A stretch of DNA of 64,000 bases from Minisyncoccota bacterium (GTDB taxonomy: Bacteria; Patescibacteriota; Minisyncoccia; Phycocordibacterales; UBA9973): positions 187,391 through 251,390 of the forward strand of contig JBAYHR010000001.1 in the NCBI GenBank assembly GCA_041666045.1, given 5' to 3'. Under the pieces are notes generated by a model. That model did not search any database. It was not told the DNA's origin and saw only the letters and a list, made by a program, of their open reading frames with translations. Position numbers and translations under genes: made by a program. Below, in pieces: positions 49,796-52,732 of the stretch. Each line of letters opens with the position of its first letter. The first letter of the stretch is position 1.

Positions 49796-52732
49796 TTAAA
49801 CAACAATGTTAATAAGTCTATTTTTAACGTAAATTATTTTCTTTATATCTAAACTGGGTAAGAATTTTTTAACTGTTTCATTTTGTACAGCTCTTTCTTT
49901 TATCTCATCCTCTTTTTCATTTGCTTGTATCATCATTTCAGCTCTAACTTTTCCATTTACTTGCACTGCAATTTTTACTTCTTCATCTTTTATTAATCTC
50001 TCGTCCCATTTAGGCCATTTGGAAAAATTTATACTCTTACAGGCAAGACCTGTTAAAAAAACAGGTCTTGCCTGTTGCAATTGTTGCCATAATTCTTCTG
50101 TCACATGCGGAGCAAATGGCGCTAAAATTTGTAGAAATTTTTTAAAATCTTCTTTTTCAATATAATCTGATTTTTCCATTTCTGTAGCTAAAATCATCAA
50201 AGCAGAAACTGCAGTATTAAAACGCATTGCTTCTATATCCTCAGAAACTTTTTTAATAGTTTTATGTAAAAGTTTTAAAACAGAAGAATTCTGAAGCGAA
50301 GCAGATGAAGAATTTTGAGAAAACCCTCGCTTCAATTCTCCGAGGGCGTATTTTCCAAAATTCTTCATCTGCTTCGCCATCACTTTCTCCCCAATTCTCC
50401 AAACTTTTTCTATAAATCTTCTTGGACCAATTATACTTTCTGTACTCCACGCAACAGGTTCTTCAAATGGCCCCATAAACATTTCATAAACACGCAAAGT
50501 ATCTGCGCCATAAGTTTTCACAATACTGTCTGGATTCACAACATTTCCCAAAGACTTTGACATCTTCACTCCACCTTCACCCATGATAAGTCCATGCGAA
50601 GTTCTTTTTTTGTATGGCTCAGAAGTTGGTACAAGTTTTAAATCATATAAAAATTTATGCCAAAATCTTGAATATAAAAGGTGAAGAGTTGTATGTTCCA
50701 TTCCACCATTGTACCAATCCACCCCGCCGGTCTGGCGGGGCGAGCCGTCTAACCAATATTTTAATTTTTTCTTATCAGCAAAAACTTTTTTATTTTTTGG
50801 ATCACAATAACGCAAATAGTACCATGAACTTCCAGCCCAGTTTGGCATAGTATCTGTTTCTCTTTTTGCAGGACCTTTGCATTTAGGACATTTTGTATTT
50901 ACCCATTTTGAAATACCAGCCAAAGGTGATTCCCCTGTATCTGTTAATTTATAACTTTTAACTTCTGGTAATTTTAATGGCAAATCTTTTTCTGGAATCG
51001 GTACGAGTCCGCATTTCTCACAATTAATTAAAGGAATAGGTTCACCCCAATATCTCTGACGAGAAAAAACCCAATCACGAAGTTTATATTTCGTAACAAT
51101 TTTTCCCCCAACAAATTCTGTTATTTTTTTTCTAGCATCTTCTGAATCTAATTTATCAAATTTTTCAGAATTAATTAAAACTCCATCTTTTGTAAGATAA
51201 TTTTTACCTTCAAATAAACTAAAATCATAAAGTTCTTTTGCATCATTAATTTTTTGTTTAGCTTCTTCATAACTCAACCAGAGAATTTCATGCAATAATT
51301 TTTCTTCTTCCGCTATTTCATACTGTTTTTCATCAATTAGTTCTAGTTCAATTAAATTACATAATAATCGCCTATTTTCTTTTTTATGTGGATGATAAAA
51401 ATGAGATTGAGTTGTTAATCCTAAATCACGAACAAATTTTGTTTTATATCCCGTTTCTTCAAAAACTTCGCGTATTGCCGTATCACCAGCTTTTTCATTT
51501 TGTTCTATACCACCATAAACTTTTGAAATTTCATTGAAAGCTTTTGCAAATAGAAAAAGATATTTACCATCAGATGGTCTTCTCACAAAAACAGCAACAG
51601 CATGTCTTTCTTTTTCATCTGTTTTTGATTCTCCAAAAACTGGAATAATAACTTGTTTTATTTGTAAATTATATTTCTTCGCAAATTCAAAATCTCTTTC
51701 ATCGTGAGCTGGCACTGCCATAACTGCCCCTGTCCCATAACCAGCTAAAACATAATCAGCGATCCATACTGAAACCTCTTCGTTATTCGCAGGATTAATT
51801 GCTTTTATTCCTTTTAATTCTACTCCAGTTTTTTCTTTCCCTTCCGCAGTTCTTTCCATTTCAGACTTTTTCTTTACATCAGAAATATATTTTAAAACTT
51901 CATTTTTATTTTCAACTTTCTCCAATAACTCATTTACAAGAGAATGTTCTGGTGCAAGCACAACATAAGTCACACCAAACAAAGTATCGGCACGAGTCGT
52001 AAAAACTTTAATTCGTAATTCGTAATTCGTAATTTTAAATTCTATCTCTGCTCCTTCACTTCTCCCTATCCAATTTCTTTGTGACAATTTTACACGTAGA
52101 GGATAATCTACTAAATCCAAATCTTTATCTAAACGATCTGCATATTTTGTAATAGCGAGCATCCATTGTTCTTTCATTCTTCTTTCTGTTTGCTCTCCAC
52201 ATCGTTCACATTTTCCATCTATCACTTCTTCATTTGCTAAACCGATTTTATCTTTTGGACACCAATTTATAGGAATCTCTGCTTTATATGCAAGACCTTT
52301 TTTATAAAATTGTAAAAATATCCATTGAGTCCATTTATAATATTCTGGATCAGTAGTATTTATTTCTCTATTCCAATCAAAAGAAATACCAAGCATTTGT
52401 ATTTGCTTACGAAAATTATCTGTATTTTTTTTAGTTACAATCTTTGGATGAATTCCAGTTTTAATAGCATAATTTTCAGTTGGCAAACCAAAAGCATCCC
52501 AACCGATTGGAAAAAGTACATTATAACCTTCTAATCTACGCTTTCTAGAAATAACATCCATTGCAATATAAGGTCTTGGATGCCCAACATGAAGCCCATC
52601 TCCAGATGGATATGGAAATTCAACTAAAGAATAGAACTTTTTTCCTTTTCCGTCTTTTGCTTTATAAATTCCTTTTTTCTCCCATTCTTTCTGCCACTTT
52701 TTTTCAATTTTTTTATGATCGTAACTTTTCAT
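49796..52732 (-). CDS. leuS: Leucyl-tRNA synthetase with an inserted Nudix hydrolase domain
   Basis: HVGHPRPY (HIGH) and KMSKSLGN motifs; editing-domain markers [18 protein letters not shown] and [19 protein letters not shown]. After the editing domain there is an extra ~140 aa with a perfect Nudix box [23 protein letters not shown]. Confidence 0.9.
   Translation of the reverse strand: [978 protein letters not shown]

Follow-up and report, generated by a model that had tools for sequence, protein, structure and literature searches.

Bacterial leucyl-tRNA synthetase (LeuRS), as known from Thermus thermophilus (Tth; 1H3N, 2BYT) and Escherichia coli (4AQ7, 4ARC), combines a catalytic core bearing the HIGH and KMSKS signatures with a CP1 editing domain, which contains a T-rich motif and the catalytic Asp, and, at the C-terminus, a domain that binds tRNA. 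Aminoacyl-tRNA synthetases (aaRS) have long been known as a source of Ap4A-type dinucleotides, and we know of no case in which such an Ap4A producer is physically fused to a candidate degrading enzyme. Asymmetric hydrolysis of Ap4A is an established activity of Nudix enzymes (PMC7705103), and mycobacterial MutT1, a two-domain protein composed of Nudix and histidine phosphatase, hydrolyzes both ApnA and 8-oxo-GTP (PMC7705103, PMC11784022). A class Ia synthetase carrying an unrelated catalytic domain is represented by NCBIfam model NF040702, describing an isoleucyl-tRNA synthetase (IleRS) with an N-acetyltransferase domain. The leuS gene analyzed here, located on a 64-kb window (the whole stretch of 64,000 nucleotides studied) of contig JBAYHR010000001.1 from a Minisyncoccota bacterium, likewise combines a class Ia synthetase with an unrelated catalytic domain, but differs from NF040702 in the synthetase concerned and in having a Nudix instead of a GNAT cargo. 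Almost certainly, its product is a true LeuRS that carries an intact Nudix domain within its chain.

Architecture of the leuS product

The gene is a single unbroken open reading frame (ORF) on the minus strand encoding 978 amino acids plus stop, exactly as first reported for this DNA. Its product scores 982.4 bits against the NCBIfam model TIGR00396 leuS_bact (cutoff 548.4), the match being broken into two parts by the insert, and shows collinear full-length homology to LeuRS from Tth (732 bits to 1H3N) and E. coli (about 609 bits). On the ORF, Pfam recognizes NUDIX alongside the catalytic core of class I, the anticodon-binding domain and the CP1 editing domain of LeuRS (PF13603, 225 bits). 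An identical protein (P0121) is annotated at NCBI as class I tRNA ligase family protein of a Candidatus Paceibacterota bacterium, and the same exact sequence is already public at NCBI, JGI and ENA on two contigs, one of up to 265 kb. The features relevant for the following are listed below, invariance referring to an alignment of 58 LeuRS relatives.

49796..52732, minus strand: leuS, bacterial-type LeuRS with embedded Nudix domain (ORF, TIGR00396, 1H3N alignment)
52580..52591, minus strand: HIGH-type signature HVGH, aa 48–51 (H48, G50 and H51 invariant)
51644..52078, minus strand: N-terminal, main part of CP1, aa 219–363 (PF13603 profile positions 1–153 at aa 219–375)
51983–52000, minus strand: T-rich motif TTRADT, aa 245–250 (T245, T246, R247, D249 and T250 invariant)
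51701–51706, minus strand: editing HD motif, H343/D344 (both invariant)
51191..51643, minus strand: inserted Nudix hydrolase domain, aa 364–514 (corresponds to a complete free-standing Nudix protein)
51446..51514, minus strand: Nudix box of 23 residues, aa 407–429 (sole match in a six-frame scan of the window)
51371..51397, minus strand: X-loop region 3' of the box, with Y446 (+17) and K450-x-x-N453-R454 (family conservation)
51092..51190, minus strand: resumed C-terminal segment of CP1, aa 515–547 (PF13603 positions 152–183; matches Tth 379 onward)
50552..50566, minus strand: KMSKS motif, aa 723–727 (K723, S725, K726 and S727 invariant)

In the alignment with 1H3N, query residues 1–363 correspond to Tth 1–363 and residues 515–718 to Tth 379–579. 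In place of the CP1 surface loop of about 15 residues present in Tth, the window protein has 151 aa, a net gain of about 136, which is close to the approximately 140 extra residues noted in the original prediction; the two flanking peptides given there were also located, the 30-mer at aa 333–362 and the 20-mer at aa 548–567. However, the insert had been placed behind the end of CP1, whereas the PF13603 profile, interrupted at aa 375, resumes only after it (positions 152–183 at about aa 509–540), and the Nudix domain is thus nested within CP1. A second difference from Tth LeuRS is the absence of the leucine-specific domain (Tth residues 580–636, located ahead of KMSKS), where the alignment jumps from query residue 718 to 723 (window 50552–50580). 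Since HIGH, KMSKS, T-rich motif and editing Asp are all intact and invariant, the enzyme looks fully functional as a housekeeping synthetase, with leucylation and editing being predicted from these motifs and from synteny with insert-less leuS genes. Compensation for the missing leucine-specific domain or for another LeuRS defect by the Nudix domain is not supported, as the motifs are invariant in the alignment with any Nudix type or none.

Identity of the insert as Nudix is far beyond chance, since PF00293 (NUDIX) matches aa 376–498 with 40.4 bits (E = 3.6e-10) at a gathering cutoff of 21.1; the insert segment scanned by itself reaches 44.2 bits. The box, formerly described as textbook, indeed fits GX5EX7REUXEEXGU at all defined positions and is the only one in all six frames of the 64-kb sequence. 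The predicted structure of the insert is a Nudix fold, an α/β/α sandwich with a pLDDT of 94, standing out as a discrete excursion from the editing domain. The profile hidden Markov model (HMM) scores, this confidently predicted fold and the catalytic residues kept in homologs together bear out the proposed LeuRS with embedded intact Nudix domain and rule out a chance likeness to the box. Compared to the rest of leuS, the insert (window 51191–51643) has a lower GC content (0.285 versus 0.328), particularly at third codon positions (0.079 versus 0.202), which fits either relaxed constraint or foreign origin.

Conservation of the insert and linkage of its family to synthetase genes

Surveying LeuRS of the candidate phyla radiation (CPR), as had been proposed, revealed a wide distribution of the insert in LeuRS from Patescibacteria. 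PF00293 is present in about 104 of the 120 best full-length relatives (60–79% identity), all of the carriers being Patescibacteria. Labels of insert-bearing LeuRS, one of which has a UniRef entry, include Paceibacterota, Minisyncoccia and Nomurabacteria, while more distant fragments are assigned to Parcubacteria, Liptonbacteria and Berkelbacteria. A scan of GTDB contigs using a generic LeuRS motif, which is to be taken as a sample and not as a census, found the Nudix box at the same site in at least 10 species-representative genomes. Among 53 insert-bearing sequences, mean pairwise identity is 37% for the insert, compared with 64–80% for the LeuRS body. Despite this divergence, G407, G408, E422, E425 and E426 are present in all 53 sequences, and R421 and E413 in 49, the remaining four belonging to one subclade with a degenerate box (Q413, S421); the box glutamates are invariant in a more divergent set of relatives as well. 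Hence, the Nudix assignment, for which conservation of these glutamates in homologs had been regarded as decisive, stands. As the glutamates are kept at only 37% mean identity, the insert can be regarded as a domain that diverges rapidly while its catalytic site is protected, and it is most likely catalytically competent, i.e., a predicted pyrophosphohydrolase.

Three of the proteins retrieved (P0020, P0045 and P0354) show Trp at universally conserved Gly positions (e.g., GTWAVMAV, VVWWVEENE). In genetic code 25, employed by Gracilibacteria and Absconditabacteria, UGA encodes Gly, and the three sequences probably stem from such lineages, with UGA having been translated as Trp. If so, the link between Nudix and LeuRS exists also in these lineages. 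On two Logan contigs (L088, L089), LeuRS pieces that combine a portion of the editing domain with the Nudix domain are found as separate overlapping ORFs in different frames, which could be due to frameshifts, sequencing errors or genuinely split genes.

An exhaustive HMMER search with the insert alone against 1.84 billion representatives retrieved as few as 260 proteins at E ≤ 1e-3, of which 80 reach E ≤ 1e-10. The 144 listed matches that were classified comprise about 84 LeuRS and about 35 free-standing proteins of approximately 160–190 aa, the rest being fragments of LeuRS or prolyl-tRNA synthetase (ProRS); the 'EELIY' proteins of about 250–390 aa, considered as a possible new architecture, also proved to be such fragments. 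The free-standing members retain the catalytic and metal-binding box residues and align with the insert end to end; therefore, the insert corresponds to a whole gene. Outside the box, the family-invariant residues are R376, F445, [Y/F]446, K450, N453, R454, L465, E477, H481 and W485, with K450 present in 53 and N453 and R454 in 52 of the 53 insert-bearing sequences and likewise in 13 free-standing members. LeuRS with two or even three Nudix copies exist (multicopy enzymes or those with pre-CP1 copies are P0241–P0244, P0248 and P0333), some copies sitting ahead of CP1, where the Rossmann half meets the editing domain.

At 7 of 11 sampled loci, the free-standing members directly adjoin aaRS genes. 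Three of them (P0286, P0301, P0325) are found 2–136 bp upstream of a bacterial leuS, and a fourth (P0254) follows an archaeal-type leuS (TIGR00395, 895 bits; L081:1714-5137) at a distance of 35 bp. In the latter case, an archaeal-type DHQ synthase (PF01959) is among the neighbors, which suggests an archaeal host; judged by eye, P0254 resembles the Nudix inserts of some bacterial LeuRS, e.g., the one on L001. The other adjacent synthetase genes are thrS (TIGR00418; 49 bp downstream of P0340), a methionyl-tRNA synthetase (MetRS)-like ORF (40 bp downstream of P0353) and argS, the latter ending 13 bp ahead of P0370, which in turn is followed at about 600 bp by an IleRS-type gene. The MetRS-like ORF (L097:40-1218, L098) comprises 208 aa representing the C-terminal half only, contains NKMSKT and may be a split or truncated synthetase. 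In the P0370 cluster (L099), the gene order is Zeta-toxin-like, Nudix, dUTPase, arginyl-tRNA synthetase (ArgRS), Nudix (P0370), small ORF and IleRS, the last one (L099:4594-7498) being a class I synthetase of 1184 aa with an embedded histidine phosphatase (His_Phos_1). A further member, P0265, is two genes away from a ProRS that itself holds a Nudix domain of the same family, while no aaRS neighbor was found at the P0285, P0313 and P0336 loci. With roughly 20 aaRS genes assumed among some 800 genes per genome, i.e., a chance of about 5% per gene of having an aaRS neighbor, the 7/11 adjacency would by our own estimate arise at a probability of the order of 1e-7, the loci not being fully independent. 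Free-standing members were also seen beside dUTPase, another Nudix, PRTase and P-loop kinase genes.

Embedding of the family in ProRS is rare but independently supported (P0385, P0293, L083). On L083 (2762-4693), the Nudix domain lies between the anticodon-binding and C-terminal domains of an archaeal/eukaryote-like ProRS (ProRS-C_1), and the host may be a DPANN archaeon, as the plain ProRS closest to it is labeled Woesearchaeota. In conclusion, the sequences represent a small specialized Nudix family of Patescibacteria and probably also of DPANN archaea, whose association with aaRS suggests a connection between tRNA charging and nucleotide clean-up.

The fused and the free-standing state can be compared directly in conserved synteny. 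Immediately upstream of the window leuS, a DUF5671 membrane-protein gene serves as synteny marker, not being part of the enzyme:

52753..53796, minus strand: DUF5671 membrane-protein gene (PF18920, 50.5 bits)

In L085/L086 and at the P0286 locus, the order is YchF, DUF5671, free-standing Nudix and insert-less leuS, and in the window it is YchF, MFS, Sua5, methyltransferase, DUF5671 and leuS with the Nudix inside, making the free and the fused form a Rosetta-stone pair. Directly downstream of the window leuS (47960-49768, minus strand), a 602-aa protein is encoded which has a hydrophobic segment at its N-terminus and contains, by the dozen, degenerate repeats of the GYQAGYSNTTG type; it is unmatched in Pfam and possibly a surface or fiber-like protein.

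Turnover at the CP1 junctions

Pairwise identities of insert and LeuRS body are uncorrelated (Spearman -0.02, 1378 pairs). While the window protein and P0124 share 88% of the body but only 33% of the insert, the relation is reversed with P0123 (77% and 84%, respectively). As rate differences alone cannot give this reversal, exchange or re-acquisition of distinct Nudix types at one site must have taken place, unless mosaic assembly contributes. Judging from these comparisons, insert and LeuRS body have had decoupled histories. Close relatives without insert (P0129, P0130, P0157, P0170, P0214, P0225; body identity 76–88%) also lack the C-terminal CP1 segment (DGVLINSxKFDxLxSExA), an 8-residue linker remaining, and look like secondary deletions, not like the ancestral state. 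The insert behaves as an exchangeable and dispensable cassette and not as an integral part of LeuRS.

In its presence/absence polymorphism, replacement at a fixed site of an essential gene and history decoupled from the host gene, the cassette resembles inteins or in-frame homing endonucleases, though in behavior only, and DUF559/REase-like modules occur at the neighboring CP1 junction of relatives. In contrast to these elements, it has no Hint domain, splice residues or flanking repeats and is a conserved enzyme kept in the mature protein. An intein was therefore rejected, as there is neither a Hint/intein Pfam match nor a splice-junction residue in the insert, which starts with IIPVF and ends with LTKDG, followed by VLIN. 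Neither direct nor inverted repeats beyond AT-rich noise were found around the insert, which speaks against a transposon-like insertion. A defence-system or phage module was likewise dismissed, since the PADLOC defence models gave only marginal matches (35–62 residues, E-values of 2.5e-5 to 2.5e-3), mostly over the Nudix box, and PHROGs only generic Nudix matches.

The junctions accommodate other cargo as well. In a LeuRS from Candidatus Magasanikbacteria RIFOXYD1_FULL_40_23 (L017:2948-6481), the spacing between HDxRD and RDW amounts to 426 aa and is filled by a Nudix domain and, behind it, a HAD_2 phosphatase bearing a DFDGV motif. Non-Nudix inserts of about 100–140 aa occupy the same CP1 loop at the GTDB loci L014, L010, L018, L019, L020 and L039; the insert is a nucleotidyltransferase (Aminoglyc_resit/NTP_transf_5) in L014 and one common domain in the Anaerolineae-type L018, L020 and L039, while those of L010 and L019 gave no Pfam match. 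A DUF559/REase_MTES_1575 module, resembling PD-(D/E)XK endonucleases, precedes CP1 as an in-frame insert in seven LeuRS (P0271, P0163, P0171, P0177, P0183, P0222, P0236); most of these also hold the post-CP1 Nudix, and the module might be related to insert mobility. Furthermore, four LeuRS (P0264, P0165, P0172, P0186) contain α/β-hydrolase (Ser_hydrolase/Abhydrolase) modules, and P0274 has a Ham1/ITPase-like one, those of P0264 and P0274 standing before CP1, beside the Nudix.

Possible function of the embedded Nudix domain

Taken as a whole, the data are best explained by an active Nudix enzyme on the CP1 loop of LeuRS that may cleave ApnN-type by-products of synthetases, the likeliest mechanism among those considered and a reading to which we assign a probability of roughly 40%. 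In this reading, an apparently functional LeuRS has acquired a complete small Nudix pyrophosphohydrolase in frame, as a globular module of its own that juts out from the CP1 surface loop. Ap4A, Ap3A and Ap4N arising as side products from the reaction of aminoacyl-adenylate with ATP or another NTP would then be hydrolyzed by the attached enzyme, specific for adenine-containing (di)nucleoside polyphosphates. In this way, AMP and ATP would be returned to a cell probably reliant on salvaged nucleotides, as expected of CPR, and the level of an alarmone and cap precursor would be kept low near the site of its synthesis. An active pyrophosphohydrolase with a job related to aminoacylation is inferred here from fold, catalytic residues and genomic linkage.

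Regarding the substrate, dinucleoside polyphosphates of the ApnN type (Ap3-5N) are proposed tentatively as the most economical class. ApnA specificity has been associated with a Tyr in the X-loop about 17 residues past the box (Dunn et al., 1999, summarized in PMC5389931), and the window protein has Y446 at just this position. Among the high-ranking sequence and structure neighbors, sharing 16–24% identity, are the small Nudix (di)nucleoside-polyphosphate hydrolases Ndx1 from Tth (Ap6A, 1VC8), the Aquifex Ap4A hydrolase (3I7U), Rv2985/MutT1 from Mycobacterium tuberculosis (9CXX), human NUDT2 and Chlamydia CT771, but equally DIPP, decapping, MutT-type and NudB/NudI enzymes. Different from these small ApnN hydrolases, the family has its own signature (K-x-x-N-R, E477, H481, W485) and is tied to aaRS genes. 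A MutT/Nudix protein from Enterococcus faecalis (2AZW, 19% identity), which is a free-standing structural-genomics entry of uncharacterized function, does not allow functional transfer. The ADP-ribose and NADH pyrophosphatase subfamilies can be dismissed, as position +16 is F445 (F in 47 of 53) and not Pro, and an array resembling SQPWPFPQS is missing. Fold neighbors, Y446 and the missing ADP-ribose/NADH motifs are in line with ApnN substrates. Since aminoacyl-adenylates are acyl-phosphates and not pyrophosphate-linked, they would be atypical Nudix substrates, and hydrolysis of misactivated ones is chemically the least attractive idea. A parallel to MutT1, in which a Nudix pyrophosphatase is coupled to a phosphatase, can be drawn for the Nudix plus HAD insert of L017 and for the His_Phos_1 domain within the IleRS-type gene near P0370. 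However, MutT1 is not linked to a synthetase, and the phosphatase of L017 belongs to another fold. Several points weigh against ApnN cleavage. The residue at +17 is Tyr in only 60% of the relatives (Y 32, F 17, C 3 and W 1 of 53), the known ApnA signature does not include the adjacent invariant K-x-x-N-R loop and the set of aaRS partners includes ArgRS. Moreover, the co-resident enzymes of the Ham1, HAD and dUTPase types fit nucleotide house-cleaning equally well.

Such general house-cleaning or salvage, in which damaged or non-canonical (d)NTPs or other NDP-X compounds would be cleaved with no coupling to aminoacylation, is in our view a doubtful but serious contender. Here, fusion or adjacency to aaRS would merely secure constitutive co-expression in a streamlined genome, the CP1 loop being a permissive site. 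This would agree with the Ham1/ITPase-like, HAD_2, nucleotidyltransferase, α/β-hydrolase and other inserts at the CP1 junctions, with dUTPase, a second Nudix, PRTase and P-loop kinase near free-standing members, with mycobacterial MutT1, an 8-oxo-(d)GTPase, being among the closest structures and with deletion or swapping of the insert without any other change in LeuRS. Co-expression, however, leaves unexplained why 7 of 11 loci show adjacency to aaRS, involving unrelated synthetases and both LeuRS types, and why internal insertion, with up to three copies, has occurred repeatedly in LeuRS and ProRS and not in other abundant housekeeping proteins. A further, improbable reading is an enzyme acting on tRNA or RNA ends, with the CP1-mounted Nudix removing a pyrophosphate-linked block and restoring chargeable tRNA. 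CP1 binds the 3' CCA end of tRNA and toxSAS-type toxins add a 3'-pyrophosphate to tRNA, so that such a modification, but also a 5' NAD or Np4N cap or a triphosphate, could be targeted, and a HAD phosphatase as in L017 could finish the repair. CP1 is flanked by the two insertion sites, all partner enzymes bind tRNA, the Nudix+HAD tandem does exist, AvrM14 and oomycete decapping effectors, RppH and DIPP/NUDT3 are among the nearest sequence or structure neighbors, and quick cassette-like turnover would suit an arms race. On the other hand, there is no assessable RNA-binding extension or basic surface, no toxin or defence gene is linked, the PADLOC matches being box-level noise, free-standing versions beside aaRS do without a CP1 tether and some of the associated synthetases do not possess CP1 at all.

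A catalytically dead module, working as nucleotide sensor or as spacer affecting CP1 movement, is very improbable. Non-catalytic Nudix folds exist, such as CFIm25/NUDT21, which binds Ap4A (PMC7705103), and the box is degenerate in the four relatives mentioned above, but all catalytic and metal-binding box residues are intact in the window protein and in the other 49 relatives, and the key glutamates have been preserved throughout, including the free-standing members, in spite of the low identity elsewhere. An assembly or annotation artefact, with either a chimeric contig or two genes read as one, has a practically negligible probability. The source is a metagenome-assembled genome, and a mosaic of co-occurring strains could add to the incongruence between insert and body; nevertheless, the ORF is uninterrupted, the identical protein occurs on two contigs, and the architecture is shared by over 100 independent homologs of full length, which stem from many samples, as well as by at least 10 GTDB representatives, ruling out a one-off chimera. 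A more far-reaching picture can be drawn in which the two CP1 hinge junctions of patescibacterial LeuRS would be hot spots for in-frame insertion of small enzymes, their exchange between lineages and their deletion, amounting to cassette-like domain mobility within an essential gene, and the aaRS-linked Nudix would have a dedicated task in the aminoacylation of these ultra-small symbionts, e.g., on-enzyme destruction of Ap4N or repair of pyrophosphate-blocked tRNA ends, but this combination is unlikely to hold in full.

With respect to novelty, the original prediction had considered the fusion as undescribed. This holds for the searchable full-text literature on Nudix in connection with LeuRS, aaRS and CPR/Patescibacteria, where no account of a LeuRS-Nudix fusion was found, and the comprehensive survey of the Nudix clan from 2017 never mentions tRNA or synthetases. 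Also, NCBIfam has no model for LeuRS with Nudix, the best one being the plain TIGR00396, with NF040702 also among the models hit. It does not hold for the sequences as such, since the architecture is already abundant in public databases, with hundreds of entries automatically annotated with PF00293. A known synthetase and a known hydrolase fold are joined here in an undescribed recurrent arrangement, the new elements being a Nudix family linked to aaRS and a turnover of cassette type at CP1 junctions.

For the minimal, salvage-dependent cells concerned, the fusion together with the repeated adjacency to aaRS genes provides a testable handle on how by-products and nucleotide quality are dealt with. 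The hinge loops of CP1 in LeuRS tolerate insertion of whole domains, which is useful for protein engineering, and the presence in an essential gene of a domain with decoupled history raises the question of in-frame domain mobility in CPR genomes.

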